In this document: positions 31,308-64,000 of the stretch, piece after piece
How positions within the stretch are numbered: position 1 is the stretch's first letter
Layout of the letters: the number at the start of each line of letters is the position of its first letter
Source: an uncultured Pseudomonadota bacterium
GTDB taxonomy: Bacteria > Oederibacteriota > Muellerivitia > Muellerivitales > Muellerivitaceae
DNA length: 64,000 bases
Reading direction: 5' to 3'
NCBI GenBank assembly: GCA_963836235.1
Contig: CAWIIP010000002.1
Span: 736,001-800,000 of the forward strand
Program-made: the position numbers and the translations under genes
The notes under the pieces: generated by a model
Database searches by the model: none
What the model was told of the DNA's origin: nothing
What the model saw: the letters and a program-made list of their open reading frames with translations, nothing else

Positions 31308-31367
31308 ATCCTTATCTTCATTCTTTTAAAACAAATCAAACCAATAACTAAAACCATATTTTTGTTT

Positions 31368-31376: not shown

Positions 31377-31398
31377 CTGATTTTCAATAAGGAGCCCT

Positions 31399-32424: not shown

Positions 32425-32431
32425 GCGCCGA

Positions 32432-33701: not shown

Positions 33702-33741
33702 CGCGTGTCCGAATTGGGTAGTGTATCGGGTTGAAAAAATC

Positions 33742-33862
33742 CGTCATTGCGAGGAGGCCGTAGTAAGGCCGACGTGGCAATCCAAACGTTCCAGAAATTG
33801 CAGTTTTTTGATTGCTTTGGGTTGCCACGTCGCCCGAAAGTCATGGGCTCCTCGCAACGACG
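33742..33862. repeat. palindromic MITE/RPE-like element between convergent genes
   Basis: CGTCATTGCGAGGAG...GACGTGGCAATCC / GGGTTGCCACGTC...CTCCTCGCAACGACG nested inverted repeats. Confidence 0.8.
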
Positions 33863-33910
33863 AATCTAAAATCAAATTTGCAAAAGTCGAGCGTTAGCTA
33901 GTCCTCAACC

Positions 33911-37417: not shown

Positions 37418-37782
37418 TTTTGGTCGACACCTCCGTTTGGATCGACCATTTCCATTCTCCCGATAAGAACCTGATTTCCCTTCTGGAAAAACAAGAGGTC
37501 CTCGTTCATCCTTTCGTGATCGGGGAATTATCCCTGGGCCACTTGAAACACCGGGACCAAATTCTGCGTGACCTCCAATTGCTGTCCCGGATACCCCCCG
37601 CCCCGGACTCGGAAGTGTTGGGCTGGGTGGAGAAACAACGGCTTTTCGGAAAGGGAATCAATTGGGTGGATGCCCATCTTTTGCTGTCCTGCCTTTTGAA
37701 TGGTTCCGAATTTTGGACTAGGGACAAGATACTGCTGGTGACGGGCCGCACAACGGGCGTTAAGGCTCATTCGGGCCGTTGA
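37414..37782 (+). CDS. vapC: VapC PIN-domain toxin
   Basis: MILVDTSVWIDH, HPFVIGEL, WVDAHLL, WTRD; GTGA overlap. Confidence 0.93.
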   Translation: MILVDTSVWIDHFHSPDKNLISLLEKQEVLVHPFVIGELSLGHLKHRDQILRDLQLLSRIPPAPDSEVLGWVEKQRLFGKGINWVDAHLLLSCLLNGSEFWTRDKILLVTGRTTGVKAHSGR

Positions 37783-39847: not shown

Positions 39848-40878
39848 GCCTTTCCTATAGCGTGGTCATCGCCGTGGACCGCACCGACAAGCCCCTTCCC
39901 GTTTTGGAAGGCTTGAAACAACTGCCACCCAGTGAAAAGCCACGGGAGATCTACGCCTGCGTGGGCAAGAATCCTTCCCTCCAGAGAAACCTGGGCGTCC
40001 AGCAATGCAAAACCGACCTGGTTTATTTTTTGGATGACGACAGTTTCGTTTGCTCCGGTACCGTCAAGCACCTTTCCTCCCACTTTGAGGACAATCGCAC
40101 CGCGGTGGCGGGCGGTCCCAACCTGGTCCCTCCCGACGCCATCTCCTTCGAGAAGACCGTCAACGCGGTTTTGGCCTCCTGGATGGGCAGCTTCAAGGTG
40201 AGAAACCGCTACGCCGCCATCGGTTCCGTCAAGGAAGCCACGGAGAAGGACCTGATCCTTTGCAACATGATGGTGCGCCGGAAGGCCTTTTTAACCGAGA
40301 GCGGTTTTCGGGTCGATCTTTATCCCAACGAGGAAAATGAGTTCTTGAACCGGCTTCTCCACAAGGGCTATCGGCTGGTTTATGACCCCCGCGGGGCCGT
40401 CTACCGTTCCCGCCGGAAGTCCCTGGGGGCCTTTTGCTGGCAGGCCTTCCGCTATGGCCGGGGCCGGGCCCGGCAAATGAAGATTTATCCCTGCTTCTCG
40501 GACATCGTGCACCTGGCCCCCGCATTTTTGCTTTTTTACCTGGTGACCCTGGTCTCGGCCTTTATCCCGAATCTTCCCGCCCTCTATAGTTCGGTTGTCC
40601 GTTCCCCTCTTTGGTGGTTGCCCATGGGGCTCTTTCTTTTGGGCGCCATTGGAACAGGCGTTTCGGCGGCTTCCTGGCACCGGCGTTTCATGGACTCCTT
40701 CAAGGTTCCGATCCTGATTTTCCTCAGGCACTTCTTTTACGGATGGGGCCTCATCGCCGGTTTCTTCACCTCCATCCCCAAACCACCCCTTGACGTGAAG
40801 GTCTTCAAGATTCAAAAGGGGCCCAAGGGAAGCCGGTTTGTTCCCCTTTCCCCAAGGTCTCCCAAGCGCAACCCTTAA
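39844..40878 (+). CDS. glycosyltransferase family 2 with C-terminal TM helices
   Basis: QRNLG, YFLDDD, GGP, CNM, PNEENE, QAFRYGRGR; start ATG 39844. Confidence 0.9.
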   Translation: MSLSYSVVIAVDRTDKPLPVLEGLKQLPPSEKPREIYACVGKNPSLQRNLGVQQCKTDLVYFLDDDSFVCSGTVKHLSSHFEDNRTAVAGGPNLVPPDAISFEKTVNAVLASWMGSFKVRNRYAAIGSVKEATEKDLILCNMMVRRKAFLTESGFRVDLYPNEENEFLNRLLHKGYRLVYDPRGAVYRSRRKSLGAFCWQAFRYGRGRARQMKIYPCFSDIVHLAPAFLLFYLVTLVSAFIPNLPALYSSVVRSPLWWLPMGLFLLGAIGTGVSAASWHRRFMDSFKVPILIFLRHFFYGWGLIAGFFTSIPKPPLDVKVFKIQKGPKGSRFVPLSPRSPKRNP

Positions 40879-40914
40879 CAGCATGCTGAAAAAATCCGAA
40901 AGGCGGCCCCACTT

Positions 40915-43188
40915 ATGGAATTAACCACCCACCGAAAAACGGCCCTGACGTCCCTGGGACTTTACCTAGCCGTCGCCTTTGTGGCCTTTTTTCCTTCCCT
41001 GATCCTGGGCAAAGTCTACTTCGCCAACGACCTTTTAAACCAATACAGCCATTTCCGGGCCCTCTTGAAAAGCCAGCTGGCCATGGGCCACTTCCCCCTT
41101 TGGAACCCCTATTTTTTCGGGGGCCAGCCCTTCTTCGCCGACCCCAACGTGATGATGTGCTATCCCCTAACCTATCTCACCCTGATCTTTCCCATTCCCT
41201 ACGGTTTGGGTGTCTTTTTTTTCCTGCATATGTTCCTCGCGGCCTGGGGAATGCATCTTTGGCTTAAAAGCCTGCGCTTATCCGCGGGCGCTTGCCGCCT
41301 GGGCGCCCTGACCTTCGCCCTTTCCGGAGTTTTCTGGTGGGAATTGATCCATCCCCCCATCCTGGCCGCCTATACCTGGTTTCCCTGGCTTCTCTTGACC
41401 CTGGAACACTTGGCCCAAAAGCTGGAAAAGGGCTGGGCCTTCCTTTCCGGCCTTTGTTTCGCGGTCATCTTCTGTTGCGGGAATTTCCAATCGACGACTT
41501 GCGTTCTCTATACCGCCTTGCTTTATTTCTTTTTCCGTTTTTGGACAAGGGATGAAGCCACCCCCCTTTGGCCCTGGAAGAAGTTAGTGGCGGCCTTCCT
41601 ATTTATCCTTTGGGGTGGATTGCCCCTGGCTTGCCATTTCATACCTGCTTATGAATTTTCAAAATACACCAACCGTCAGGACGCCAACCAGACCTACGAT
41701 CACTTCAACGGGCAATTTTCCATGGTTCCCTCGACAAGCTATGAGTTCCTTTATCCCAGCCTGGGAGTTCCACCCGGAAGCAACATTGAGCTGGCGATCC
41801 AGCAAATTACCGACCAGGTCAATGTCGGGAACGACTTCCTCGGAGCCTTCGGCTACTTGGGAATCTGGGCGCCTTTCCTCATGGCATTAGCTTTCAAGCG
41901 GAAGGAGAAAAAATTCCTCATCTTCCTGGCAGGAGTGGCTTTTTTATCCGTCCTGACCGCCTGGGGGCGCTATACGCCCTTGCACCGCCTGGAATGCCTC
42001 TTGATGCCGGGAGTCAACTTGAGCCGGGCGCCTTTCCGCTTTGTCCAGGCCTACCTGCTTTTCGCCTGTGTCCTCCTGGCCTTCGGTTACCAGACCCTGG
42101 AAAGGGGATTCGCCGAAACGGGCCGCCGTTCCAACGCGGTTTGGTTTGCCTTGATTTACGCCTTTTTGCTTTTCGTCCCAACCTTCGTGAATCCCGGCCA
42201 AACTTGGCGTGAAATGCTGGCCCTGGGGCTAGGGCTGGGAGGCTTCCTTTTAATATTTTTAACGGAGTCCTGGAAACCCTTGGGCAAAAGCCTTCTCCAA
42301 GGCGCCTTGCTTTTTCCCCTTCTGCTCACCGGTTGGTCCGATTTCAGTTTGGGGCCCGCCTCCAATTTCAATTACGAGGAAAATTTCCCCGCTTTTACCT
42401 ATCTCAAGCAGAACTCAAGCCTGGGCCGCTACGATTTTGACCAAAGCCTGTTCTATCCCGTGCAAATGGGCAACGCCAATTACCGTTGGACCTTTCCCCA
42501 GGACGCTCCCATGGAATTCGGAATCCGGGACAGCGGCGGCTATAACCCGATTTACCTCCTCAAACCCATGACCCTCAAGTCCCTGCCCCTTCAAAATTTC
42601 GTGAGGCTTATGGCCATCCGCGGTTTTCTTCTGGGCCGGGACGCGGGCGAGATGAAAGGTTTTGACCGCCAGGTGATGGGAGAGGTTTACTATTACGGGG
42701 TGCAGGTCCCCTCCAGTTTCGTCACGGCTCCTTTCCAATGGAAAGTCGTTCCCGACGATCAGGCCATGATCACGGAAATGAAAAACCCGGATTTCGATCC
42801 GGCGAACCAAGTGTTTTTATCCGAAACGCCTCCCCCCGACATAGCCGCCAAACTAACGGGCCAAAAGGCCTCCCTTCAATATGACTGGGTGAAAAACGAC
42901 ATGAACGAGGAATCGTTCCAGATTCGCCTGGACCGGGATAGTTGGGTATTTTTCTCGGAAGTCATGTTTCCCGGATGGAAGGCGAAAGTGGATGGAAACC
43001 CATCGGAAATTTTCACCGGCAATTCCACCTTCCGGACCTTGTTCATTCCGGCCGGGGAACACTTGGCCGAATTTTATTATGAGCCCGTCTGGGCCCAACC
43101 GCTTCTGGTGGGATTTATTCTTTGGTTGATTTCAGCCCTGGGTTACGCCTTTTATTCCATGCGGGCCAAACCCGCCGCAAATGCTTAA
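40915..43188 (+). CDS. YfhO-like GT-C membrane protein
   Basis: ND...PLWNPYFFGGQPFFAD, YLG, RAPFRF, GYNP, SEVMFPGWKAKVDG C-terminal motif. Confidence 0.88.
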   Translation: MELTTHRKTALTSLGLYLAVAFVAFFPSLILGKVYFANDLLNQYSHFRALLKSQLAMGHFPLWNPYFFGGQPFFADPNVMMCYPLTYLTLIFPIPYGLGVFFFLHMFLAAWGMHLWLKSLRLSAGACRLGALTFALSGVFWWELIHPPILAAYTWFPWLLLTLEHLAQKLEKGWAFLSGLCFAVIFCCGNFQSTTCVLYTALLYFFFRFWTRDEATPLWPWKKLVAAFLFILWGGLPLACHFIPAYEFSKYTNRQDANQTYDHFNGQFSMVPSTSYEFLYPSLGVPPGSNIELAIQQITDQVNVGNDFLGAFGYLGIWAPFLMALAFKRKEKKFLIFLAGVAFLSVLTAWGRYTPLHRLECLLMPGVNLSRAPFRFVQAYLLFACVLLAFGYQTLERGFAETGRRSNAVWFALIYAFLLFVPTFVNPGQTWREMLALGLGLGGFLLIFLTESWKPLGKSLLQGALLFPLLLTGWSDFSLGPASNFNYEENFPAFTYLKQNSSLGRYDFDQSLFYPVQMGNANYRWTFPQDAPMEFGIRDSGGYNPIYLLKPMTLKSLPLQNFVRLMAIRGFLLGRDAGEMKGFDRQVMGEVYYYGVQVPSSFVTAPFQWKVVPDDQAMITEMKNPDFDPANQVFLSETPPPDIAAKLTGQKASLQYDWVKNDMNEESFQIRLDRDSWVFFSEVMFPGWKAKVDGNPSEIFTGNSTFRTLFIPAGEHLAEFYYEPVWAQPLLVGFILWLISALGYAFYSMRAKPAANA

Positions 43189-45481
43189 TCCCTTCGGCCA
43201 AGACGGGAACGAAGAATCCGCTCTTCCCCGAAAAAGCTTTTTTCTTTATCTCGTGCTTTCCCTTCTGGCTTTTTACCCTTGTCTTTTTCAAGGAAAAGCC
43301 TATTTCGACAACGATCTTTTGGCCCAATTTGGGCCCTGGAGGGCCTTTTTAAGGGATCAATTGGCCCATGGCCATTTCCCCCTCTGGAACCCCTATTCCC
43401 TGGGCGGGCAGCCCTTTTTCGCCGACCTCCAAAACATGATGCTCTATCCTTTCAATTACCTGACCCTTCCCTTTTCCATACCTGTGGGTCTAAGCCTTTT
43501 TTTCCTGATTCATCTTCTTTGGGCGGCCTTCGGCATGCATTTATGGCTGAAGTCCATGGGCCTATCCGAAAACTCCTGCCGGGTCGGCGCCCTTTTGTTT
43601 TCCCTTTCGGGTTTTTTTTGGCTGGAGCTGATCCATCCGCCGGTTCTGGCGGCTTTCGCCTGGCTTCCTTGGCTTTTTTACCGCCTCGAACAATTGGCCA
43701 AAAACCAGAAACCGTCGAACGCTTTCGGGGCGGGTTTTGGCTTGGCCATGCTTTTTCTTTGCGGCAGTTTCCAGGTAACCGTGGGGGCCTTTTACGGCGG
43801 GCTGGCTTACTTTCTTTTCCGCTTCCTTTCGAATCATCAAAAAAGCGTGGCCCGATTATCCGTAAAGTCGCATTTGCTTTTTGGATTTTTTCTTCTTTGG
43901 GGGGCCTTACCCCTCTTGGGCCAGTTGATTCCAAGCCTGGAATTTTCCGCGCTCACCGACCGCCGCGCGCCGGGCCAAACCTACGAGCAATCTAACAGCC
44001 GTCTGCCCTTGAACCCCGCCACCCTTTACCAGTTTTTCCTCCCCCGCCTTACCGTTCCCGAGGGCAAGGAGATGGCCGAGGCCATCCAGTTCGGCAACAC
44101 GAATGGGGAGACCCACCTGGCCGCGAATTTAGGTTACCTGGGTATTTGGCTTCCTCTTTTTATTTTTTGGGCTTTCGGGCACAAGGAAAAGAACTTGGTG
44201 CGCTATCTGGGAGGTTTCGCCCTCTTTTCGCTGTTGCTTTGTTTCGGCGGCTATACTCCTCTTCACCGGATTCTTTGCGACCTCTTACCCGGGCTTTCGA
44301 TCATCCGGGTTCCCTATCGTTTCTTGTTTCTTTACGTCCTTGCCGCCTCGGCTTTGGCGGCTTTTGGTTTTGAGCAACGCTTATCGGAAGACCCGCCAAA
44401 AACCGAAATCTTTCACCGCCTGAAAACCCCGCTCGTCTATGCCTTTGTCTTGTACTTGGCGGCCCTTTGGAGGCCTTCCATGAACTGGAGGGAAATTCTG
44501 GGGCTGACCCTGGGGACTATCGCCCTTTTCCTACCGGCCTTCACCATTCCAAAATTAAAAACCCTCTCGTCTCTCTTGTGGGCGGGCGCCCTGGTCCTGC
44601 CCTTACTCTTGAGCGGCTTGGATGACTTCAAACCCGCGTCCGCGTCCAATTTCGATTTCGCCCAAAATTCCAAGGGGCTGGTGGAGGGCGCCCTCCGCTT
44701 GGGACCCTACCGGCTCATTTTCTATAATTCGACCATGGGATATCCCATCGAAGTGGGCGGGCGGGATTACATCCTGAATTATCCCCAAAACGCCGCCTGC
44801 GCCCTCCAAATCAAAAACTTCGGGGGCTACAATCCCTTAATGCTTCAAACCAAAAAGGACATCGGCACCCTCCCCTTGGGGCCTTTGGTTCAACTGGGGG
44901 CGATTCAAGGAGTTGTGACGGGAACCGCCAAAGGACCCTTGCCCGGTTTCAAACGGGAGTCCTTTCCCCCTTATTTTCTTTATGAATACGAAAAACCCTT
45001 GTCCTACGCTTATGCCCCCCAAAAACTGGTGATGGAACCTGATCCCCATCGCCGCTTGGCCCTATTGCAAAACCCGGGCTTTGACGCGGCCCAAACCGGG
45101 CTCCTCCCGGGGCCTTTTCCCGCCGAATGGACAAGCTCTTTGGAAAGCGGAAAACCCGCCGGGCTTCAATGCCGCTTTGAAAAGGATGAGGCGGACTTCC
45201 AAGCTTTTTCCCTGAACCTGGATCGCGCGAGCCTGGTCGTTTTTTGCGAGGTGATGTACCCGGGTTGGAAGGCTTTCATCGATGGACAAGCGGCGCCCCT
45301 TTACAATGCCGACTATTTTTTAAGAAGCGTTTACGTTCCTTCCGGGCAACACCGGGTGGAATTCCGGTTGGATCCCGCCTGGTGGCTTCCTCTTCGCGTC
45401 GGCTTGGCGATTTGGCTTTTGGTAACCCTGATGGGCCTTCTTTATATGGGACGTCCGGGCAAAGGAATCCAACGTGCGTAA
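43181..45481 (+). CDS. YfhO-like GT-C membrane protein (paralog of the upstream gene)
   Basis: ND...PLWNPYSLGGQPFFAD, RVPYRF, GYNP, EVMYPGWKAFIDG. Confidence 0.88.
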   Translation: MLNPFGQDGNEESALPRKSFFLYLVLSLLAFYPCLFQGKAYFDNDLLAQFGPWRAFLRDQLAHGHFPLWNPYSLGGQPFFADLQNMMLYPFNYLTLPFSIPVGLSLFFLIHLLWAAFGMHLWLKSMGLSENSCRVGALLFSLSGFFWLELIHPPVLAAFAWLPWLFYRLEQLAKNQKPSNAFGAGFGLAMLFLCGSFQVTVGAFYGGLAYFLFRFLSNHQKSVARLSVKSHLLFGFFLLWGALPLLGQLIPSLEFSALTDRRAPGQTYEQSNSRLPLNPATLYQFFLPRLTVPEGKEMAEAIQFGNTNGETHLAANLGYLGIWLPLFIFWAFGHKEKNLVRYLGGFALFSLLLCFGGYTPLHRILCDLLPGLSIIRVPYRFLFLYVLAASALAAFGFEQRLSEDPPKTEIFHRLKTPLVYAFVLYLAALWRPSMNWREILGLTLGTIALFLPAFTIPKLKTLSSLLWAGALVLPLLLSGLDDFKPASASNFDFAQNSKGLVEGALRLGPYRLIFYNSTMGYPIEVGGRDYILNYPQNAACALQIKNFGGYNPLMLQTKKDIGTLPLGPLVQLGAIQGVVTGTAKGPLPGFKRESFPPYFLYEYEKPLSYAYAPQKLVMEPDPHRRLALLQNPGFDAAQTGLLPGPFPAEWTSSLESGKPAGLQCRFEKDEADFQAFSLNLDRASLVVFCEVMYPGWKAFIDGQAAPLYNADYFLRSVYVPSGQHRVEFRLDPAWWLPLRVGLAIWLLVTLMGLLYMGRPGKGIQRA

Positions 45482-46334
45482 TCCCTTGTTTTCGTTACTC
45501 CAAAAAGTTTATTACGGCATCGGCGGGCATGGCTTGGGCCGGATCAAGCCCCTACGCTGGGCTTATGGGATCCTTTTTGGGCTTTTAAAACCCCGTTCGG
45601 TGATGGTCCAGGGCCACCGTATGTGGCTGGATGACAAGGACACCCTGGAGTTGGCGAATCACGAGGTTTATGAACCAGTTGAAACTGAAATTTTTAAAGG
45701 GGAGATCAAGGCCGGGGACAGGGTTTTGGACATCGGCGCCAATATCGGCTACTACACCCTCATTGCCGCCCATCTGGTAGGCCCCCAGGGCAAGGTTTAC
45801 GCCTTTGAACCCGATCCCGCTAATTTCCGCCTTCTCCAAAAAAACGTGGAAGCCAACGGCTATACCAATGTCGTTTTAGTGAACAAGGCCCTCTCGAACA
45901 AAAACGGAAAGATCCGCCTTTACTTGAATCCTTCCAACCGGGGTGACCACCGGGTTTACGACTCGAAAGACGGGCGTTCCTCCATAGAAATTGAAACGGT
46001 GGCCCTCGACCGTTTTTTTAAACCCTTGGACAAGAAAATTCATTTCATTAAAATGGATATCCAAGGAGCCGAAGCTTTGGCGCTGGCGGGCATGAAGGGA
46101 TTGATCCGAAGAAATAAGGGATTAAAGCTCGTCACCGAATTTTCCCCCGCTTCCCTTAAACTGGCCGGAAGCCGTCCCGAGAATTATTTAAACAGCCTCA
46201 AGTCCATGGGGTTCGGTTTTTTCGAGATATCCGAGAGGAAAAAGTCGGTCCAGCCGGTGAAAGCTAACCAGTTGTTGAAACGCTCCTGGGGCGGGAGTGA
46301 GGATTACACCAATTTGTTTTGCGTGAAAAAATAG
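45474..46334 (+). CDS. FkbM family methyltransferase
   Basis: VLDIGANIGYY, YAFEP, IKMDIQGAE. Confidence 0.93.
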   Translation: MRNPLFSLLQKVYYGIGGHGLGRIKPLRWAYGILFGLLKPRSVMVQGHRMWLDDKDTLELANHEVYEPVETEIFKGEIKAGDRVLDIGANIGYYTLIAAHLVGPQGKVYAFEPDPANFRLLQKNVEANGYTNVVLVNKALSNKNGKIRLYLNPSNRGDHRVYDSKDGRSSIEIETVALDRFFKPLDKKIHFIKMDIQGAEALALAGMKGLIRRNKGLKLVTEFSPASLKLAGSRPENYLNSLKSMGFGFFEISERKKSVQPVKANQLLKRSWGGSEDYTNLFCVKK

Positions 46335-46346
46335 CCAAGGACTTCC

Positions 46347-47249
46347 ATGCTCTCTAAAAACCAATTCGTCCGTTCCCATGGTTTGGGAAACGACTATCTC
46401 GTGATGGACCCGGCCTCCCTTTCCTTTGATTTAACCCCCCAGAACATCATCCGGGTTTGTAACCGTAATACCGGCGTGGGTTCGGACGGCATCCTAGCCC
46501 TGGAGAAATCCGATTCTTCCCTGGCCCGCCTGCGGATTTATAACCCGGATGGAAGCGAAGCCGAAAAGAGCGGCAACGGCCTGAGGATTTTTTGCAAATT
46601 TCTCTTCGAGCATGGTTACACCGAGAAAACTTATTTCGAGATCGAGACGGCCGGAGGCAAGGTCCAGGCCCAACTGCACTTGGTGGTGGGCAAAGCCGCG
46701 GCGGTAACCGTGGATATGGGCAAGGCCGAATTCGCCGCCGGGAAGATTCCGGTGAATGTTCCTAATAGCGAAGCGGAAGTCATCGATAAGCTGATTCCTC
46801 CCATCAAGCCGGGCGACAGTTTCCGGATTAACTGCGTTTCCATGGGAAATCCTCACTGCGTGGTTTTCGTAGGCAATATCGAGGAAGCTGAATCCCTGGC
46901 CCACGAATATGGCCCTTTGTTCGAAAATCATCCCCTCTTCCCGAACCGCACCAACGTCCAATTCGCCGTGGTCAACAACCGTAAAGAGGTTAGTATCCGC
47001 ATTTGGGAAAGGGGTGCCGGCTATACCCTGGCTTCCGGTTCTTCCTCCTGCGCCGTGGCCGCTGTTTGCGTGAAAACGGGCAAAACCGACAGGGAATTGA
47101 CCCTTCATATGCCCGGAGGTGACCTGGCCTTGAAGGTCAACGATAACTTTGATTTGACCATGCGCGGACCCGTGGAGGAAATCTGCTTGGGAACGGTGAC
47201 CGGAGAATTACTCCAATTCCTTGAAAAAAACGCCCATCGAAAAGTCTAG
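46347..47249 (+). CDS. dapF: diaminopimelate epimerase family protein (Ser/Ser active-site variant)
   Basis: HGLGNDY, GVGSDG, NPDGSEAEKSGNG, SMGNPH, WERGAGYTLASGSSSC. Confidence 0.85.
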   Translation: MLSKNQFVRSHGLGNDYLVMDPASLSFDLTPQNIIRVCNRNTGVGSDGILALEKSDSSLARLRIYNPDGSEAEKSGNGLRIFCKFLFEHGYTEKTYFEIETAGGKVQAQLHLVVGKAAAVTVDMGKAEFAAGKIPVNVPNSEAEVIDKLIPPIKPGDSFRINCVSMGNPHCVVFVGNIEEAESLAHEYGPLFENHPLFPNRTNVQFAVVNNRKEVSIRIWERGAGYTLASGSSSCAVAAVCVKTGKTDRELTLHMPGGDLALKVNDNFDLTMRGPVEEICLGTVTGELLQFLEKNAHRKV

Positions 47250-49545
47250 TTCTCTCTCCCTAACCCCAAAGACCTTTTGGCGCCAAGAAGGCCCTCCGCT
47301 TCTCTTTTTAACCGCCGCTTTCCTATTATTTTTTAAGGAATGGTCCCATCCCTTCACCCGATTTTTTCTCTCCCTGGACCTGAGCGTTTTATACGAACCG
47401 GTTTATTTTTGGGTTCACCAGCATCTCTCCCAGGGTAAATTACCCCTCATTTGTGACAACGCCATGCATGGGGCCCCGATCGCCGCTTATTCGATGGCGG
47501 GTGTCTTGTCCCCTTTTCTTTGGTTGTTCCACTGGTTTTCATCTTATGTCTTAGTATTCAACCTTCTCTTCCTGTCTCCCCAAGCTATCTATTTATTCGG
47601 AACATATTTTTTGGGACGCCAACTGAACTTGTCGCGGTCCGCTGCCTTACTATTGGCCTTCTTTTGGTCTTTCAACGGCCATCAAATGGCCCAACTGGAC
47701 CACTTAAATGTGGCTTGGGCCCATGCCTTTTTTCCCTGGGCGTTCCTGGCCCTGTTACGTCACTTGGAAACCCGACGAGCCTTCTGGATTTTTCTTTCAT
47801 CTCTTTTGATGGGTTTGAACTTGCTCTCGGGCCATCCTCAGGTTTTCTTTTTGGAGTGTCTTTTTTTCCTTTTCCGGGCGCTTTTCTTCGACGCTTATAA
47901 GCTTAAAACGCGGTTGGGTTCCACGATCCTGATGGGCCTGGGATCTCTGATCGTAGCCTCACCCCTTATTCTCTTTACCGCCGAATGTTTGAAGGGTGAT
48001 TTTCAAACTCAATGGAGTGTTATTGATCGTTTTTATCACTCCTGGACACCGATGAATTTCCTCACCCTTTTCTTCCCTTGGTTCTTTGGAAAGACTCAAT
48101 ATGACCGCGCGGGAATGGACTATTGGTGGCAGTATCAGTTTGTGGAAATGCAGGTGGCCTTCTCCATTGTTGCCCTGTTCTTCATCGTCTTTTTCTTTTC
48201 CCGCAAAGATCCGCGAAGGAAATGGATCGCCTGGACTTTCGTCTTCGCTCTGGCCATGTCCATGGGCAAATTCACCTTCTTTTATTCCCTGGTCCAATCC
48301 CTCCCAGTCTTTTCCTTCTTCCGCGACCCGGCCCGTTATTGGTTCTTAGCCACTTGGGTCCTTGGGATAGGCGCGGCGACGGGTTGGGACCTCTGGTTTG
48401 AGGAAAGAGACCATGGGGTCCAAGGTAAAAAAATAACTCTTTGGATCGCTGGGGCGACAATTGGAATACCCCTGATGGGACTGGCCCTTTTGTCATTCGG
48501 ACGGCCTCTTTTGGAATCCTCCGCCGACTTCTTTATCCGCCATTTCCTTTTAGGGGATGCGGCCCATTTCCAGTCCCTTTCCTTTTACTTGAGCCGCGTT
48601 CCGCAAAAATTGGAGGCGCTTGCCGTTAATTTGAACCCCATCCGTCCCAGGGTTTTCCTCCCTATTCTCTTTTTAGGCGGTTTGCTGGCCGCTGTTTGGG
48701 GCCGCCCTCGATGGAATCTGACCTGTCTCAAGATTTTTCTTCTCTTTTTGGTTTTGGCCGACCTTTATGCTTTTCGCATGCCCTTGGGGAACGCTTTTTA
48801 TAATCCGTCGGATATTACCGCTCCTCAAGTTCCCGCGCCGGAAAATCGAACTCTCACTCTTCTTTACAACACTCCTTCGCCCCTTCCTAACCAATATCGG
48901 GAAATGGCCTATCCCAACATGAACTTGATGTTCAACCGGCCCAACCTAGTTTTCGACGCCAACCCCACCCCCCGGCGCTACGCCGACATCTGGGCCAAAC
49001 TAGGTTGGTTTTCATGGGTATATAAAGACCGGGATCCTATGGGCTTTTCCAACAATATCGATCTTCTTCGGATGATGGGTGTGGACCAGATTGTTTCTGA
49101 TATTCCTTTAAAACTTCCCCCGATTTTCACCGTGACTCAAAACCATTACCCCTTTGTTTATCACTTAGGATCAGCTATGCCCAAAGCCTATCTAGGGATT
49201 ACCCATGGAAAAGCGATGTTATTAAATCCCCCTGAATTTAAGCCGGATATATCCGAATGGAGCGAAACACGCCTTTTGTTGTCCGCCCGCAATAATAAAT
49301 CGGATTATGGATCCAATTTATTGTTTCTCCAGAAGACCTGCCTTCCTGGATGGAAAGCCAACATCAATGGAAACCCGGTTCAGATCCAAACCGAGGACGA
49401 GGTATTAACCGCCCTTCCTCTGGAAACAGGCGATAACCGAATCGAGCTTCATTTCGATCCCACCGGTCTGCGCCTGGGCTTTTTCCTGTTTTTCGCCTTT
49501 TCCGGGCTCTTTTCCTTCTTCCTGATTCGCCGCATCCTCGCTTGA
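47221..49545 (+). CDS. YfhO-like GT-C membrane protein (divergent)
   Basis: GKLPL...HGAP, SGHPQ, FRDPARY, PGWKANING. Confidence 0.8.
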   Translation: MKKTPIEKSSSLSLTPKTFWRQEGPPLLFLTAAFLLFFKEWSHPFTRFFLSLDLSVLYEPVYFWVHQHLSQGKLPLICDNAMHGAPIAAYSMAGVLSPFLWLFHWFSSYVLVFNLLFLSPQAIYLFGTYFLGRQLNLSRSAALLLAFFWSFNGHQMAQLDHLNVAWAHAFFPWAFLALLRHLETRRAFWIFLSSLLMGLNLLSGHPQVFFLECLFFLFRALFFDAYKLKTRLGSTILMGLGSLIVASPLILFTAECLKGDFQTQWSVIDRFYHSWTPMNFLTLFFPWFFGKTQYDRAGMDYWWQYQFVEMQVAFSIVALFFIVFFFSRKDPRRKWIAWTFVFALAMSMGKFTFFYSLVQSLPVFSFFRDPARYWFLATWVLGIGAATGWDLWFEERDHGVQGKKITLWIAGATIGIPLMGLALLSFGRPLLESSADFFIRHFLLGDAAHFQSLSFYLSRVPQKLEALAVNLNPIRPRVFLPILFLGGLLAAVWGRPRWNLTCLKIFLLFLVLADLYAFRMPLGNAFYNPSDITAPQVPAPENRTLTLLYNTPSPLPNQYREMAYPNMNLMFNRPNLVFDANPTPRRYADIWAKLGWFSWVYKDRDPMGFSNNIDLLRMMGVDQIVSDIPLKLPPIFTVTQNHYPFVYHLGSAMPKAYLGITHGKAMLLNPPEFKPDISEWSETRLLLSARNNKSDYGSNLLFLQKTCLPGWKANINGNPVQIQTEDEVLTALPLETGDNRIELHFDPTGLRLGFFLFFAFSGLFSFFLIRRILA

Positions 49546-57206: not shown

Positions 57207-60200
57207 TTAGTGAACGACCAGCAGTTTGAGGGTTTGACGGCCCATAAGGCCTCCCCCGTTCGGGTTCGTTAATTCCACCACCGCCAGGTAGACGCCGCTG
57301 GCCACATGGGAAGCGTCCCAGGAAACAAGGCCGGTTCCGGCGTCGCCGCTATTCACTTGGACCAATTCCCCCGCAAGCGTGTAAATGGACACCTGTAAGG
57401 TCAGGCTCAAGGACGAGTTAGTGTGGAAGGTCGTCGTCATTGATCCCTTGGAAGCGTTCAACACATTGGGCCAAGCCGTCACCACGCCCATCCCGCTGGC
57501 CGTATTGCGGTCTTCCACCGAAACTTCCTTAATCACCGTGGTTTCCCCGCCGCTCCCGTCCACCGTATGCACTTCCACCAGGTACTGCCCGCTTTGCACA
57601 TAGGAGCCGTCGTCGCTGGTCCCGTTCCATACCATCGTCGTTCCGTTGCTCAGCGTGATCGTCAACTGACTGGGCGCGCCGGGGCTGGGCGCCAGTCCAG
57701 GTTCGATGACGGTGGAAGACAGGTTCACCGAGGCTACCCCCACCTGGCCGGGATCGTCAGTATAGGCATAAAGGTGCTTCACCACTTCCCCCGCCTCGTT
57801 ATAAATGAGGATGGTCGAGGTATAGAGCGTCCGGTTGACCATCACCTCCTGGGTCGTGCTCACCTCGGACCCCAAACTACTGAGGCTGTCCACCTTCACG
57901 TAATAGGCCCCATTGGCCGCCAGGGTTCCACTGGAAGTCGTCCCGTTCCAACTGCCCAGGGGCATACCGTCGTAATAAATCGTCACGGCGTTATTGGGCC
58001 CGTTCAGGCTGGTGATGGCGTTGCTGGACGCAAGCGTGATGTTCTCGACCGGTTGGGATAGTTGTTCCGTCAGGATCGTATCCACCAACTCACCCGCTTC
58101 GTTGTAAACCCCGATTTTGACCGAGTATTGGCCCGTCACCAGCACGCTCACGCTGGCCGTGACGGGAGCCCCTTCCGCATAGATCAATAGGGCGTTATTG
58201 GTGATGGTACTTCCGGAGGTCAGAAGGTTATTCAATTGTGCCTGGTAGACCAGCTGGTAATTCCCAGTCGCAAGGGGCGAGGGTAAAGTCCAAGTCAATA
58301 AGCTCCCAGCTGAGCTGGTGGCGGTTCCAGGCGGGCTGGAGACGAAATCAACAAAGGTTTCACTGGCAGGCAAAGGGTCGTTTACTACTAAGTTCTGGGC
58401 GCTGTTGCCCGTAACCACCAAGTTAAGGGTATAAGTCAAGGTGTTGCCCGATTGGGCCGAGGTGGCGGTAACCTGCTTGTTCATCGAAACCGAAGTCGGG
58501 GGTGTGGGAGTGGCGGTGTAAGTAGGGGTCAATGTCGGGGTAGTGGTTGAAGTGTTGGTCGGGGTCAATGTCGCGGTCCTGGTCGAAGTGTTGGTGGCGC
58601 TATTGGTCGCGGTAAAGGTCGCGGTCGCGGTGCGGCTATTGGTAGGCGAACTGGTGGGAGTGGCGGTAGCCGTGTTGGTGGTCGTGGAAGTGGGGGTATA
58701 GGTGGGAGTATCCGTGGCGGTGTTCGCCAAAGTGTTCGTGGCTGTGGCGGTGGGCGTATTGGTCAAGGAGTTCGTCGGAGTGTTCGTAGCGGTATCCGTG
58801 GCGGTATTGGCCAAAGTGTTCGTCGCCGTGGCGGTGGCCGTATTAGTCGGGGTGCCTGTCGCTGTGTTCGTTGGAGTGTTCGTGGCGGTGTTCGCCAAAG
58901 TATTCGTGGCTGTGGCGGTGGCGGTATTGGTCGGAGTGCCTGTCGCTGTGTTCGTTGGAGTGTTCGTGGCGCTATTCGCCAGGGTTTCCGTAGGGGTGAA
59001 AGTAGCCGTATTGCTGGGCGTGGCGGTCGAGGTATTAGTCGGGGTATTGGTGGCGGTGTTCGCCAAAGTGTTCGTTGGCGTGTTAGTGGCGGTGGAAGTT
59101 GGAGTGCGGGTGAAGGTATAGGTCGCCGTGTTCGTGAGCGTGCTGGTGGATGTGAAGGTGGGCGTGTTGGTGGGGGTACTGGTCGCTGTGGGCGTAATGA
59201 CATTGGTATTGGTCGGGGTCATCGTAATCGTGGCTGTGGCGGTGTTCGTGGGGGTATTGGTAGGTGAAGCGGTTGGGGTTTTCGTCATGGTATTGGTGAG
59301 CGTGTTGGTTTGTGTCGAAGTGGCGGTATTAGTCGGGGTGTTCGTCGCCGTGGGCGTATTGACGAAAGTATTGGTGGGCGTCGTGGTGGGAGTGTTGGTG
59401 GCCGTGGAGGTCGGCGTTTTAGTGGGGGTGATGGTGGCGGTATTGGTGGGCGTGTTCGTGAGGGTGTTGGTAATCGTAGGTGTGGGGGTTTTAGTGGGTG
59501 TGCTTGTGGCTGTTGGCGTAATGACGTTGGTGTTCGTCGGCGTCATGGTAATGGTATTGGTAGCCGTGTTCGTGGCCGTGTTCGTGGGAGTTGGGCTTGG
59601 CGTACGGGTCGGGGTGTTGGTGAGCGTGTTGGTGGCCGTAGCGGTATCAGTGTTAGTGGGGGTATTGGTCACCGTATTCGTGGGAGTATTCGTGCGCGTG
59701 GGAGTGGGCGTATTGGTAAGTGTCGGGGTGGCGGTATTGGTCGGAGTATTCGTTACCGTATTGGTAGGGGTATTCGTGCGGGTGGCAGTGGGCGTATTCG
59801 TAGCGGTATTCGTAAGCGTGTTCGCTATTGTGTTGGTGGGCGTGGGAGTCACCGTATTGGTCGGAGTGTTGGTGTGCGTGGGAGTGGGGGTGTTGGTCGC
59901 AGTATTCGTCACCGTATTGGTGGCTGTATTCGTGTGAGTGGGCGTGGGGGTGTTGGTCGGAGTGGGGGTGTACGTATTGGTTGGGGTATTGGTATTGGTT
60001 TTGGTGGGGGTATTAGTGGGCGTATTGACGACCGTATTGGTCGGAGTATTGGTTTGCGTATTGGTGGGAGTGTTAGTCCGAGTGGGGGTTTGGGTATTGG
60101 TGGGTGTGAAAGTGGGAGTCTTTGTTGGTGTGTTCGTGGGCGTATTGACGACGGTATTAGTTGGAGTGAGGGTGAAAGTGTGGGTAGGTGTATTCGTGGG

Positions 60201-61502
60201 TGTATTCGTGAATGTATTCGTGTGAGTATTGGTGTTGGTGGGGGTAGGAGTGCTGACTGGGGTTGTAGGCGTCGGTGTAGGGGTGAAAGTGCGAGTCCAA
60301 GTGGGGGTGGGCGTGTTGGTATAAGTGGGCGAATTGGTAAAAGTGAAGGTATTCGTAAAGGTGGGCGTAAAGCAGGGAATGCCGACGGTAAACTGGGCGG
60401 AAGGCCCCGCATGGCCGGCACCCCATGAAACGCTGGCATCGTCCACCACCGTCTGGCATTGGTTGTTGGGCCAATAATTCTGCACGAAAGCGAAACCGAC
60501 GGTAACGCAAGAGGAGCCCGGTAGCCCTGACGGAAAGGCTACATAGGCGGGCTGTCCCTGGCCGAATGTCGGGTCGTCACCTACTCCAAAGGTGGGACTG
60601 TAGCTCCAAGTGTAGGGATTGTTCCCAAAATTATCCCATCCAAAGCCCGAGACTTGAAAACCGGCGGTTCCATTGGCTCCCGTTCCCCAATTGTCGAAAA
60701 CCGTCACGGGGCCCGTCGTTATCGGCCCACCCGTATTGCAAACCGCCACCATGAAAGTGACGGCAATGGTATTCCCGGAAGTCACTCCACCACTGTAAGT
60801 CTTGGTGATACTAAGATTCGGGGGCCCAATGGTAGGTTCAGGGGTGGGGATGGTGGTGCATTGGCGCCAAAAAAGGGCGCCAGTGGAGGTGCCGTAGTCA
60901 CCCGAACAATTGTTGGAGGCGAAAGGAAGAGTCTTACCAGTGACCGGATTATACAATTGATTGGCCCAGGTGGAAGCCGTCACCCCGCTGGAACAATAGG
61001 CAGAACTAAAAGCGCCTCCCCCATAGGTTGGGCTGTACCAAGGATTGCCGCTGGAGTCGTTTGCGGGACCAGTGCAAGGATTACAATTGGAGGCATTGGT
61101 ATAATAATTTGAGATGCCACTTCCCGTACTGGTGATTTCAGAGTGCTGGCCGCCGGTGCAGGTAATATCCAGGTCCCAGGAGGTGAAGGTGTCTTGGGGG
61201 GCGGTATTTTGGGTGTAAATTCCCAAACAGACTTGCGCGCCCGTCAAGAGGGATGTCGATACGCTGATGCAAGTGGGACTTCCGGCTCCACCCGTTCCGG
61301 GAGCGCCGGCATAAGGAAAGGTTCCGATTAAAGTTCCGCCGACATAAGCTTGAGAAAAGTCATCGCTGGAGATACAGAGTGTCGCGGACTGAGGGGTACA
61401 TTGGGCCATAGCCTGGTTCGCGGGTATCGAAAGAAAACACAAAACCGCGAGCCCGGAAACCCAAAAACGATTTAAATTATTTTTTAATGTCTTGATGAAC
61501 AT
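57207..61502 (-). CDS. very large secreted protein: Cys-rich N-terminal domains, (Thr-X)n stalk, DUF11-like domain, three FlgD-Ig-like modules, T9SS-CTD-like end
   Basis: Signal peptide (..AMA/Q), more than 600 aa TNTPT repeats, YNEAGE(L/V)V twice, AWPN...IYTLAGELV...ASGVYL...KLLVVH; start ATG 61502. Confidence 0.88.
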
Positions 61503-61916
61503 TTCTTGTCTTTCTCGAAAAATAAACAACAACCGATAGTAAGCAAAACCCATCTGGCCTTCTATGATTGCCATCAGGTCACGATTTTTGAATCTTAGCT
61601 AAAGAAGTACCAAAAGCTCGAAACCGTCTATTAAACCGGTACCATTCCAAATCACTTAAAAAATACCCTCCAACCACTCAGCATTTGTGGTCGTTCAGGC
61701 GTTGGAAAACTATTACCTTATAACGATATTAACGGTCAATATTGTTCCTACTTGAGGAGTATCTCATACTTTTTTGATTTTAAAGAGGGTCTTGAACAAA
61801 AAAATAGGGGGATTTTGCCACATTATTGAGCCAAATTCCCTTTTAAGCCGGAAAGAGGTTTAAGTCTAACAAGTGGTTGCAGGGCTAAGTCCAAAGATTG
61901 AAAGCGTTGAAACCGT

Positions 61917-64000
61917 TCAGGGGTTTATCTCCGCCGACATAGCCCGAGCCTTGGCCATACATTCTTGGGCTAGGCTGGCCTGCCCAAGCGTCTCAAAGTC
62001 CTCCCCTATTTGCTGAACCCATTTGGGGTTCGTCGGATTGAGGTTCCAGGCGATTCGAAGCTCTTCCAAAGCCTTTGCCTTCAGCCCCTGAGAAATGTAA
62101 ATGTCCGCCATCTTGAGGTAATAAACCGGCTCCCGGGGATGTTGGTTGATTCCCTTCCGGTATAACTCCAAAGCCTGTTCGGATTTTCCTTCCCATTGGT
62201 AAATCGTGGCGAGATTCACGAGGTACTCGGAATTATCCGGGTCCAAGCGATGGGCTTTTTCGAAAGCCGTCCGGGCTTCCCCATACTTTTTCAAAAAACC
62301 ATAACTCACTCCCAAATTATTGTAGAACAGCGATGAACTCGGCTCGATCTGGAGGGCGGCTTGCATTTGTCCAATGGCCTCCTCATGCCGCCCTTGGCGT
62401 TCGTAAATAGTCCAAAGGCTGAGGCGAGGCAAGATGAATTGAGGATTCAGCGTCAGGGCATAGTCGAATTCCTGAACCGCTTCCGGAACCCGGTCCTTGT
62501 ACAAAAGGGCCGTTCCCAGTCCGCCGAAAGTCTCCGCCAGGGGCGGGGGAATGGCCGCGGCCCGGCTATAAGCCGCCAGCGCCTCGTCATAGCGATGGGC
62601 CTTGATATAAGCCGCCCCCAATTTGGAATAAGCGGTCGGATTTTCGTCTGGGTAAACTTGCGTCACCCTTTCCCACAAGGCCTGGGAATTTTTCCAGGTT
62701 CCGATCTGGGCCATGGTTCCCACTCCCAGAAGGGGCGTGGCCAAAAAGAGTAATGCCGCGTACAAAACCCAGTGGTAAGAAAGAAGAAATGCCACTCCCG
62801 CCGAGAAAGGCAGAAAAAAACCAAGGCTGGCCAAATAGGTATAGCGATCGGCGGCCGCTTCACTTCCCGTTTGGATGATTCCCACGACCGGCAAAAGGGT
62901 GACGACGTAAAAAAGCCAGGCTGTCAAAAGATAGGGAACCTGGCGGCGGTAACGGAATAAAAGAATGAAAATCAGAACCACCGCCGCCGCCGCGCCGAAA
63001 TTCTCCAAAAGGTAAAAATCATTCATTTCCGGGGGAAAGGGATAATAGGCCGTCAGCCCCAGGGGCCATGCCATTTTCAGCGGATAAAAAACCAGCGACC
63101 GGAAAGAATTCATCACCCAATAAAACTCGACCCCGCTCTTGGCATAGGAAAGGGTATTTTTATGCGAGACCACCGTCATTAAGACGGCTCCAAAAGCGAC
63201 GATGAAAAATGCGGTTTTCTCCCGGATGATTTTGGCCAAGCCCAATCGCCACCGGCCCAAAGGCCAACCATCGAGAATCAGGAAAACTAGGGGAAGGGTG
63301 ATGGCCATGGGTTTAGCCATCAAGGCAAGCAAGTAAAGCCCCAGACAGGCCCAGTACTTGAAACCCTTTCCTTTAAAGGAAAAAGGCTCGTCCAAATAAA
63401 GCCACAGGGCCCCCAGGTAGAAAAAAGAATAAAGCACATCCTTGCGCTCCGTGGCCCAGGCCACCGATTCCACATGGATCGGATGAAGCCCGAAAAGCAG
63501 AGCCGTCATAAAGGCGATGGGCAGGCCAAAAGCTTTGGGCCCATCGGCGTTTCCGGATACGGACTTATCGGGAAAATGCCTCATCAACCGAAAACACACC
63601 AGGAAAACCAGAACGGTATTTAATACATGGAAAAGAACATTGGTGGCATGGAACATCCGGGGGTCTAACCCGGTTAGCCGATAATTAAGGGCGAAAGAAA
63701 GCCAGGTGAGGGGTATCCAATTTCCCGTGGGGAAGGTGGTAAACATCCATCGTACCGAGTTCCAATCAAGCCGCCGGATTTGGACGTTATTCGTAATGTT
63801 GTCCATATCGTCCCAATTGACGAAATCATTTTTCAGGACCGGAAGATAAAAGAAAGCCACCGCCAGGGCCAAGAATATCGCGCAAACCCAGAGGATCTCC
63901 CGACCTCCCTGGAGAAAAGGGGGTAGTGGCGCGGTTGAAACCTTATCCAGGCTTCCCTTTTCGAGAACTTGGGCGACCTCCGCCTCGGTAAGCCCCGTTT
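61917..64000 (-). CDS. TMTC-like membrane protein O-mannosyltransferase with C-terminal TPRs; 5' end beyond window
   Basis: NDFVNWDD, HPIHVESVAWATERKD, KPMA, ADRYTY, TPR repeats; frame stays open from 63872 to the window end. Confidence 0.88.
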   Translation of the reverse strand, partial: TGLTEAEVAQVLEKGSLDKVSTAPLPPFLQGGREILWVCAIFLALAVAFFYLPVLKNDFVNWDDMDNITNNVQIRRLDWNSVRWMFTTFPTGNWIPLTWLSFALNYRLTGLDPRMFHATNVLFHVLNTVLVFLVCFRLMRHFPDKSVSGNADGPKAFGLPIAFMTALLFGLHPIHVESVAWATERKDVLYSFFYLGALWLYLDEPFSFKGKGFKYWACLGLYLLALMAKPMAITLPLVFLILDGWPLGRWRLGLAKIIREKTAFFIVAFGAVLMTVVSHKNTLSYAKSGVEFYWVMNSFRSLVFYPLKMAWPLGLTAYYPFPPEMNDFYLLENFGAAAAVVLIFILLFRYRRQVPYLLTAWLFYVVTLLPVVGIIQTGSEAAADRYTYLASLGFFLPFSAGVAFLLSYHWVLYAALLFLATPLLGVGTMAQIGTWKNSQALWERVTQVYPDENPTAYSKLGAAYIKAHRYDEALAAYSRAAAIPPPLAETFGGLGTALLYKDRVPEAVQEFDYALTLNPQFILPRLSLWTIYERQGRHEEAIGQMQAALQIEPSSSLFYNNLGVSYGFLKKYGEARTAFEKAHRLDPDNSEYLVNLATIYQWEGKSEQALELYRKGINQHPREPVYYLKMADIYISQGLKAKALEELRIAWNLNPTNPKWVQQIGEDFETLGQASLAQECMAKARAMSAEINP

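Follow-up and report, generated by a model that had tools for sequence, protein, structure and literature searches.

Can the acceptor of a bacterial relative of the human TMTC O-mannosyltransferases be read from its genomic neighbourhood? Such relatives number in the thousands, none with a known substrate, and a conserved enzyme-substrate gene pair would make the substrate question directly testable. A candidate pair lies at positions 57,207-64,000 of the 64,000-nt stretch of DNA analysed here (the window), which belongs to contig C2 of genome G000 (3.97 Mb, 5 contigs, 99.4% complete), and consists of a gene for a TMTC-like membrane protein, a predicted glycosyltransferase of the GT-C superfamily with a tetratricopeptide repeat (TPR) tail, and an adjacent gene for a surface protein bearing a long Thr-rich stalk. 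A first interpretation made from these letters alone (the sequence-only reading) had proposed that the two genes form a TMTC-type system for O-glycosylation of the stalk. Comparison across genomes did not bear this proposal out, and the reading that we favour, to which we give about an even chance, is that the TMTC-like gene encodes an active GT-C enzyme with a protein acceptor, which is not the dedicated partner of the stalk gene.

The TMTC-like gene is encoded on the minus strand at window positions 61917-64000, where it remains open at the window end (open frame 61917-63998); its full extent (G000:C2:797917-800070) encodes 717 aa and would end at window position 64070. On the same strand, a 1455-aa open reading frame (ORF) for the stalk protein occupies positions 57207-61574, separated from the TMTC-like gene by an AT-rich intergenic spacer (61575-61916) measuring 342 nt to the first ATG of the stalk gene, or 414 nt to the ATG of M25 at position 61502, the likely start, which precedes a stretch resembling a signal peptide by eye. 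The adjacency and co-orientation described in the sequence-only reading were therefore recovered, as were its WDD, HPxHVESVAW and ERKD motifs in the GT-C/TPR protein (W86-D88, H196-W205 and E208-D211, respectively), and the stalk protein, given there as 1432 aa with hundreds of Thr, comprises 1431 aa from M25 and 393 Thr residues in total. No consensus terminator or promoter was identified in the spacer by a simple scan, which gave fewer sites than shuffled sequence.

Across the phylum, the occurrence of TMTC-like genes and of Thr stalks was found to be uncoupled. We surveyed 99 phylum genomes using the membrane domain of the TMTC-like protein, both as a single protein (E≤1e-10) and as a profile (A2, E≤1e-5), together with a DNA pattern of eight alternating Thr codons representing the T-x-T tracts of stalks, for which 5109 matches were obtained in G000 against 9 for a reversed control. 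The T-x-T pattern was present in 82 of the 99 genomes, typically with hundreds to thousands of matches, and absent from families f3-f6. For co-occurrence we took the 60 genomes with a completeness of 90% or more, the profile counts being compiled by hand from tables. These counts and the adjacency statistics reported below ignore relatedness, although related genomes are not independent samples, and the searches may overlook weak relatives. With the profile, 27 genomes possessed both features, 25 the T-x-T pattern only, 7 a TMTC-like gene only, and one neither (20, 32, 6 and 2 in the same order for the single-protein search). Thus, a TMTC-like gene is missing from 25 of the 52 TxT-rich genomes and present in 7 of the 8 TxT-free genomes. 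For example, G087 and G088 (both 100% complete) and G094 (98%, 3 contigs) possess 1757, 4939 and 5894 TxT matches, respectively, and no TMTC-like match, and the same combination of abundant T-x-T tracts with no TMTC-like match characterises families f2, f11, f16, f17, f18, f20 and f22, which include complete genomes. Conversely, TMTC-like matches were obtained in all five families without T-x-T stalks (f3-f7). Even within the family of the window itself (f1), two genomes, G068 (99% complete) and G073 (98%), possess approximately 3080 pattern matches each and no TMTC-like gene. This phyletic pattern is the opposite of an obligate coupling between stalk and TMTC-like gene, and stalk glycosylation, if present, does not in general depend on the TMTC-like enzyme.

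A second family of GT-C/TPR proteins, related to TMEM260, was considered as a possible companion of T-x-T stalks in the same survey and was ruled out by its presence in 92 of the 99 genomes; since it is also found in every TxT-free family, including all 17 genomes of families f3-f6, its distribution does not follow that of the stalks.

A corresponding result was obtained from the genomic surroundings of TMTC-like genes. We collected 73 loci around homologues from GTDB species genomes, extending up to 10 kb per side, some of which carry the label FCPU426, the candidate-division label on the public records nearest to G000. Among the 60 loci from other phyla, not so labelled and totalling 926 kb, only one (L027; 1/60) was found to possess long Thr-rich ORFs, while five more contained only short frames of 150-231 aa rich in Ser and Thr. 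Here and below, Thr-rich denotes at least 35 Thr in some 100-residue window of the protein, an arbitrary threshold. Thr-rich ORFs were also present within 10 kb in 8 of the 12 FCPU426-labelled loci; we rejected this proximity as evidence of a link, because 43% of random 22-kb windows of G000 hold a Thr-rich gene and the FCPU426 count consequently carries no weight. Taken together, the 60 loci and the 99 phylum genomes display no genomic association across taxa, an outcome that the sequence-only reading had named in advance as contradicting its proposal, and the dedicated TMTC-stalk system is accordingly set aside given a single long Thr-rich neighbour among the 60 loci, the uncoupled phyletic patterns, and a local gene order (described below) whose conservation is general.

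The composition of G000 itself provides a background against which the adjacency can be judged. From a crude set of 3213 gene calls (a greedy selection of the longest ORFs, 100 aa or more), 116 genes were classified as Thr-rich, together spanning 355,650 bp or 9% of the DNA. Of the 3097 remaining genes, 172 (5.6%) touch a Thr-rich gene and 64 (2.1%) have a co-oriented Thr-rich gene directly downstream. The genome also encodes at least 60 distinct GT-C genes, comprising matches to PMT_2 (37), TMEM260-like (9 matches, 8 genes) and YfhO (12 matches, 11 genes), in addition to two TMTC-like genes and two large membrane proteins that are TPR-tailed or YfhO-like. GT-C genes touch a Thr-rich gene in 4 of 60 cases, compared with 5.5% of 3037 other genes (p 0.43), and have one within two genes in 8 of 60 cases, compared with 10.4% of others (p 0.29); as a class, they are not enriched beside Thr-rich genes in G000. 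On our reading, the two genes under study adjoin each other owing to the sheer share of the genome taken up by stalk genes (9%) and to a local gene order that was inherited among close relatives. Nor do the comparative data single out the TMTC-like enzyme among the 60 GT-C candidates, given the many stalk-rich lineages that lack a TMTC-like gene.

Many of the GT-C genes of G000 are approximately 700 aa in length, several of those scanned possess a TPR tail, and tandem arrays occur, e.g. at C2:1537557-1546434 and C5:84618-97973.

What kind of protein the TMTC-like gene encodes was addressed by structural modelling. Confident AlphaFold models of the full protein (pLDDT 87.2, pTM 0.80) and of the membrane domain alone (pLDDT 90.0, pTM 0.87) were built on 37 and 40 homologues. 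Residues 1-42 form a small head of three helices, residues 57-459 eleven long helices, and residues 462-714 a TPR superhelix. On the minus strand of the window, the head corresponds to positions 63945-64000, its first 24 residues lying beyond the window; the GT-C membrane domain with its 11 predicted transmembrane (TM) helices (residues ~57-459) to 62694-63902; and the TPR domain at the C-terminus (residues ~462-714), which is probably periplasmic, to 61929-62687. When the whole model was searched with Foldseek, all of the matches listed (best ~40) were TPR structures, and the membrane domain was therefore folded and searched alone. With this TM-only model, Foldseek placed ArnT first (5f15; E 3.2e-4, 394 columns, 16% identity), followed by PglB (5ogl, E 9.1e-4), AglB and Pmt4, and almost all of the top 20 were GT-C enzymes. 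A VIA-align search of 48,161 chains ranked Pmt4 (9e61_A, Z 18.6, 330 residues aligned, root-mean-square deviation 4.3) and Pmt1-Pmt2 (6p2r_B, Z 18.5) highest, with AglB (18.4), ALG12 (17.7), STT3 (17.6), ArnT (5f15_A, 17.3) and PglB (16.7) close behind. For the Pmt proteins, sequence identity in the structural alignments is 10-14%. On these models, the membrane domain has a GT-C (GT-C_A) fold. As the structural scores tie within approximately one Z unit (the gap between Pmt4 and ArnT being Z 1.3), the fold fixes the superfamily and not the subfamily.

Residue conservation was read from two alignments, of 37 and 40 homologues with 35-75% identity. Invariant in both are D87, D88, H196, P197, V200, E201, W205 and K210, to which R209 and D211 can be added as fully conserved in the smaller alignment and nearly so in the larger, and R409 and Y412 as invariant in the 37 and 40 homologues alike. 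The pair D87-D88, a candidate catalytic pair within the W86-D87-D88 motif (63807-63812, minus strand), lies between the helix formed by residues 57-80 and short loop helices, in the first extracytoplasmic, putatively periplasmic, loop. The second putatively periplasmic loop carries the segment HPIHVESVAWATERKD (residues 196-211; 63438-63485, minus strand), which spans the motifs H196-PIHVESVAW-205 and E208-R-K-D211 and includes R209-x-D211.

Seven motifs with defined loop positions are described for the TMTC family in a study by Eisenhaber and co-workers (PMC7801869). We mapped these motifs by their loop positions on the model, rather than through an alignment to TMTC sequences. By the published positions, three of the seven are kept in the right loops: the DD of M1 in loop 1 as D87 and D88, the RxD of M3 in loop 2 as R209-K-D211, and the ERxxY of M7 in loop 5 as D408-R409-Y-T-Y412, in which E is replaced by D. 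Others are altered or reduced. M4 of loop 3, KE(T/Q)xxT, is represented by K253-P254-M-A-I-T258, in which the Lys is invariant and the Thr nearly so, while the proposed metal-binding Glu is replaced by an invariant Pro (P254). From the SHKSYRP of M2 in loop 1 only P120 is retained (as N-W-x-P-L-T), and from the PxxP of helix 9 only the first Pro (P394). For the DW motif of loop 4, no invariant D-W was found in residues 305-350 across the 37 and 40 homologues. This agrees with the behaviour of PF08409 (TMTC_DUF1736), a model of the same loop (TM7-TM8): hmmscan of the whole TMTC-like protein or its membrane part gave no match, and a whole-genome search at E≤10 matched only an unrelated 58-aa frame on contig C4.

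The sequence-only reading had named DUF1736 as a check on its TMTC-type assignment, and this signature is absent; what stands is a GT-C fold with a TPR tail, the DD pair, and several TMTC motifs in the right loops. The HPIH surroundings also resemble a human TMTC3 string, ‘...LLFAVHPIHT’, quoted in PMC7801869, where a cytoplasmic N-terminus, 11 TM helices and a non-cytoplasmic TPR region are given for TMTC1-4; the TMTC-like protein shares this architecture, assuming the sidedness we propose for it below. Likewise, ArnT is the closest solved structure both for the TMTCs and for the TMTC-like protein. The bacterial protein differs from TMTC1-4 in lacking cadherin-type substrates, in possessing an extra helix-turn-helix (HTH)-like head, and in its donor, which would be a bacterial polyprenyl phosphate sugar. 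It therefore resembles TMTC in architecture and likely chemistry, while membership of the TMTC family proper is not established, given that one defining feature (DUF1736/DW) fails.

Sequence searches place the protein within a very large bacterial family. Pfam detected only TPR repeats, at residues ~455-715 (TPR_1, E 2.4e-26), and no family at E≤0.001 in the membrane part (residues 1-440). Neither PF02366 nor PF13231 was among the families reported for the protein, and PF11028 did not match its gene. NCBIfam returned only TPR families, below their cut-offs. Against PDB sequences, TPR proteins made up the best 60 matches listed for the whole protein, and the membrane domain gave no match at E≤10. 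Within G000, the membrane-domain profile detected only the two TMTC-like genes, i.e. the divergent pair formed with the paralog at C2:800318-802426 (50% identity). In broader databases, relatives were abundant: 5934 proteins reached E≤0.001 among 8000 candidates scored, confirmation in GTDB species genomes was obtained for 604 of 630 matched stretches, and the family extends across Nitrospirota, Desulfobacterota, Acidobacteriota and Planctomycetota. The membrane-domain profile also matched 428 longer proteins at E≤0.001, and the 120 listed carry bacterial or metagenome labels, or none, and no PF08409. Many homologues are automatically labelled ‘protein O-mannosyl-transferase’ by the Joint Genome Institute (JGI) and ‘tetratricopeptide repeat protein’ by NCBI. 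In the ESM Atlas, bacterial PMT_2-type clusters are nearest (score 0.97) and a eukaryotic DUF1736 cluster follows at rank 22 (0.92). PF13231 (PMT_2) does not match the 717-aa protein, which is absent from the 37 PMT_2 places in G000, but is carried by several longer homologues and by 27-30% of members in the nearest ESM Atlas clusters. No characterised bacterial TMTC-like enzyme was found in the literature searched, the scope of which excluded subscription papers. We regard the TMTC-like gene as unremarkable within a very large bacterial GT-C/TPR family, which is uncharacterised and already carries automatic O-mannosyltransferase-like labels.

Two further observations concern variation among homologues. 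The N-terminal three-helix module (helices 3-12, 18-25 and 29-42; pLDDT 83-96) is also present in the paralog and in close orthologues, and is absent from the majority of distant homologues, which start only at query residue ~45-75. Also, at L006:10001-11341, from an FCPU426 metagenome-assembled genome, an orthologous membrane domain contains an in-frame stop codon and its frame is apparently split, which may reflect a pseudogene or an assembly error.

Other GT-C systems provide points of comparison. The protein O-mannosyltransferase (PMT) family (GT39), with fungal Pmt1/2/4 and actinobacterial Pmt, attaches mannose to Ser/Thr-rich regions as proteins are translocated; its members are the classical enzymes for Ser/Thr-rich linkers, catalysing the kind of reaction that the sequence-only reading had proposed. 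They include the best structural matches of the TMTC-like protein (Pmt4 and Pmt1-Pmt2), which itself lacks a MIR domain and carries a TPR tail instead. ArnT transfers 4-amino-arabinose to lipid A, and has 13 helices, a small periplasmic domain, no TPR, and a lipid acceptor. Bacterial TMEM260-like GT-C/TPR proteins (PF11028/DUF2723) share the general build of the TMTC-like protein and belong to a different Pfam family. The streptococcal GtrB/PgtC2 system, with a YfhO-type GT-C, and the Pgf system (PgfM1/M2) transfer a sugar from undecaprenyl phosphate onto Ser/Thr-rich extracytoplasmic tracts (PMC12041528). These systems belong to the YfhO GT-C subfamily, not the TMTC-like one, occur in monoderm hosts, and have a known donor synthase. 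YfhO-like genes, as used by the streptococcal systems, are also present in G000, with 11 copies of which three are inside the window.

The stalk protein is one representative of a large class. An N-terminal part of 330 residues without a Pfam match is followed by the T-x-T stalk (residues 392-1041; 58452-60401, minus strand), whose 650 residues include 298 Thr (46%), 92 Asn, 85 Pro and 55 Ala; 91% of its Thr have another Thr at i+2, compared with 2% at i+1. Beyond the stalk lie a DUF11 domain (residues ~1041-1128; 58191-58454, minus strand; PF01345, 25.3 bits against a cut-off of 24.6, E 2e-5) and three FlgD_ig-like beta-sandwich domains (residues 1139-1246, 1250-1346 and 1366-1453; 57216-58160, minus strand; PF13860, E 6.3e-14). 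The last of these is of the type A C-terminal sorting kind known from the type IX secretion system (T9SS), as it matches TIGR04183, Por_Secre_tail (C2:793273-793434; 25.1 bits against a cut-off of 23), and the C-terminus scores just under the cut-off of PF18962 (E 1.7e-5, 25.5 bits against 27). A profile of this C-terminal beta-sandwich domain, built within the genome, was found at the extreme C-terminus of at least 93 proteins, 71 of which are among the 116 Thr-rich proteins, and a GH5 cellulase, S8 proteases and a CBM3/NHL protein are among the Thr-rich proteins scanned. Judged from domain content, the T-x-T tract looks like a general stalk or linker of secreted cargo of T9SS type. A search of G000 for SprA (PF14349) gave no match, but control genomes did not match either. 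A second gene with a T-x-T tract is located in the window at 17422-20619 (minus strand), and an initial NCBIfam scan had returned nothing for either stalk protein.

These features allow a mechanism to be proposed for the TMTC-like enzyme. With a cytoplasmic head and eleven helices, the TPR domain would emerge in the periplasm, on the same side as the loop bearing D87-D88. The donor would probably be a polyprenyl-phosphate monosaccharide, with K253 and R409/Y412 as its candidate binding residues; where solved relatives contact the phosphate of the donor, the protein has conserved basic and aromatic residues. D87/D88 could then direct transfer of a single sugar to an acceptor, most likely a protein, which the periplasmic TPR domain may select, as has been proposed for the TMTCs. 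The product of the stalk gene, by this account, would be one of 116 Thr-rich secreted proteins, most with a T9SS-type C-terminal domain, in which T-x-T serves as an inter-domain stalk. T-x-T stalks are chemically plausible candidate acceptors, and the fungal and actinobacterial PMTs and the streptococcal systems above set precedents for GT-C enzymes that act on Ser/Thr-rich tracts. Glycosylation of the stalks by the TMTC-like enzyme may occur and is not required.

Several observations nevertheless weigh against our reading and would suit a lineage-specific arrangement, in which the TMTC-like enzymes of f1, with or without the nearby TMEM260-like and YfhO-like GT-Cs, add O-linked sugar to T-x-T stalks while the T9SS-type cargo crosses the periplasm, the neighbouring stalk protein being one of many substrates and other lineages using other GT-Cs. 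Both TMTC-like genes of G000 (2/2) touch a Thr-rich gene, and the divergent pair that they form is flanked on both sides by Thr-rich genes (the stalk gene, and beyond the paralog the gene for a 2459-aa Thr-rich protein), as are only 4 of 2992 adjacent pairs. Of all observations, this double flanking speaks most strongly for a local link, but it concerns a single locus picked after the fact, and the locus sits in a ~100-kb stretch holding seven Thr-rich genes. In the three closest orthologues (L003, L004 and L005; 74, 62 and 59% identity), a co-oriented orthologous stalk gene also follows directly, with L005 ending inside the stalk gene and L006 ending before the stalk position. In G000, however, the stalk gene is succeeded by LacI, DUF4912, GH57 and ROK genes, and L004 retains all six, from TMTC-like to ROK, as one block, as does L003 without a DUF4912 match; because the block runs on through LacI, GH57 and ROK (and DUF4912 in L004), what is conserved is general synteny including unrelated genes, and not the specific pair. 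On the upstream side, the order in L003 differs, with two TMTC-like genes in tandem beside YfhO-like and TMEM260-like genes, all four contiguous (L003:3379-12151) and flanked by Thr-rich genes. In G000 (C2:797917-820199), the same four genes are split by a stretch of ~13 kb encoding the 2459-aa protein, a Thr-rich S8 protease and a ParB-like gene, which leaves the YfhO-like and TMEM260-like genes 13-18 kb away and the TMEM260-like gene, 18 kb from the TMTC-like gene, adjoining Thr-rich genes. Among 40 TMTC-like paralogs sampled from four relatives with 8-19 copies each, a Thr-rich gene occupies the immediate neighbour position in 8 of 79 cases, compared with 1/75, 6/72 and 1/66 at positions 2, 3 and 4 (8/79 versus 8/213 pooled; Fisher p 0.04, uncorrected, with crude gene calls and the paralogs not being independent); any local excess is weak at best, and a Thr-rich neighbour is missing from at least 32 of the 40. 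Genomes of f1 with more TxT matches also tend to hold more TMTC-like copies (Spearman rho 0.42, p 0.018 for n=31; rho 0.39, p 0.13 for the 17 complete genomes; not corrected for genome size or kinship), a correlation that genome size and shared ancestry may explain. The lineage-specific arrangement also has precedents in the streptococcal GtrB/PgtC2 and Pgf systems (PMC12041528) and in fungal Pmt4, the best structural match, and missing adjacency leaves the stalks possible as acceptors, since a general O-glycosylation enzyme need not adjoin its substrates. Still, we consider it unlikely in view of the stalk-rich genomes without a TMTC-like gene, including G068 and G073 from f1 itself, the stalk-free genomes that possess one, and the lack of enrichment of GT-C genes beside Thr-rich genes. 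Further, no donor-synthase (GT2) or GtrA-type flippase gene adjoins the TMTC-like gene among the neighbour genes on both sides, the nearest GT2 gene (window 39520-40878) lying ~21 kb off within a separate YfhO island.

The acceptor might alternatively be a lipid or glycan, e.g. lipid A or lipopolysaccharide core as for ArnT, an exopolysaccharide, or another envelope polymer, with the TPR domain docking the enzyme to machinery that assembles the envelope. ArnT, which Foldseek ranks first for the membrane domain, would fit such a role, as would the nearness of PMT_2-type clusters in the ESM Atlas relative to the eukaryotic DUF1736 cluster, the PF13231 scores of some homologues, the occurrence of the family without Thr-rich neighbours in Nitrospirota, Desulfobacterota, Acidobacteriota and Planctomycetota, and both the substitution of the M4 Glu by an invariant Pro and the missing DW motif. 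Conversely, the best VIA-align matches are protein O-mannosyltransferases, though tied within Z 1.3 with ArnT and the oligosaccharyltransferases; the HPIH and RxD strings resemble TMTC3; and proteins are the acceptors of TMTC1-4, the TPR-tailed GT-C enzymes whose substrate is known (PMC7801869). On balance, a non-protein acceptor appears improbable. A greater departure would be a GT-C-derived membrane scaffold or sensor devoid of enzymatic activity, with the HTH-like head and TPR tail coupling envelope signals to gene expression. The retention of the three-helix module in orthologues and the paralog, its weak matches to Pfam HTH families (E 0.003-0.01), and a homologue named ‘TPR repeat protein/transcriptional regulator with XRE-family HTH domain’ by JGI are in keeping with this idea, which we regard as very improbable given that every HTH match falls below its curated cut-off, that the majority of distant homologues lack the module, and that the DD pair and the donor-binding Lys, Arg and Tyr are invariant across the 37-40 homologues, as expected of an active enzyme. 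An active GT-C enzyme that has a protein acceptor and is no dedicated partner to the stalk gene remains our preferred reading.

Because the association does not extend beyond three close relatives and the phyletic distributions of the two features are uncoupled, the gene pair offers no direct handle on the substrate question. What is gained is a good model of a bacterial TMTC-like enzyme, on which kept and lost TMTC motifs are mapped residue by residue. Furthermore, a phylum combining an extreme load of T-x-T stalks with an unusually large GT-C repertoire represents a better glycoproteomics target than the gene pair; strict T-x-T alternation is a hallmark of this phylum, and no description of the stalks, or of their phylum-wide pairing with a very large GT-C repertoire, was found in the literature searched, within the scope given above. 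More speculatively, FCPU426 bacteria might display a surface coat of T9SS-type proteins on T-x-T stalks that are O-glycosylated in the periplasm by at least 60 GT-Cs, with the f1 block of two TMTC-like, TMEM260-like and YfhO-like genes flanked by stalk genes acting as a lineage-specific island that glycosylates its neighbours. We hold this to be doubtful, and a little more so than the lineage-specific arrangement weighed above; if true, no earlier bacterial relative of the TMTCs would have had a known protein substrate.

The remainder of the window contains several additional features. A glycosylation island on the plus strand (37779-49545) comprises a GT4, an LPG_synthase_TM-like membrane protein, a GT2, two YfhO-like genes, an FkbM methyltransferase, DapF, and a third YfhO-like gene, and has no Thr-rich neighbour. 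A dip in G+C content (0.44-0.48, compared with ~0.53 elsewhere) at 30000-34000 coincides with a GmrSD_N (DUF262-type) nuclease gene (31399-32424) and may mark a small defence islet. At 6177-10387 (plus strand), genes for a circularly permuted ATP-grasp, an Alpha-E domain protein, a proteasome-type subunit and a transglutaminase-like protein occur in a row, presumably resembling the known Anbu-type cluster. These are followed at 10447-12408 (plus strand) by a 653-aa fusion of HemD (uroporphyrinogen-III synthase) and HemE (uroporphyrinogen decarboxylase), after which lie genes for a ferrochelatase and a protoporphyrinogen-oxidase-like flavoprotein. Also identified, at 23669-30345 (plus strand), were three radical S-adenosylmethionine genes, two with B12-binding domains, arranged around an NAD-dependent epimerase/dehydratase gene and adjoining a gene for an NHL-repeat protein.

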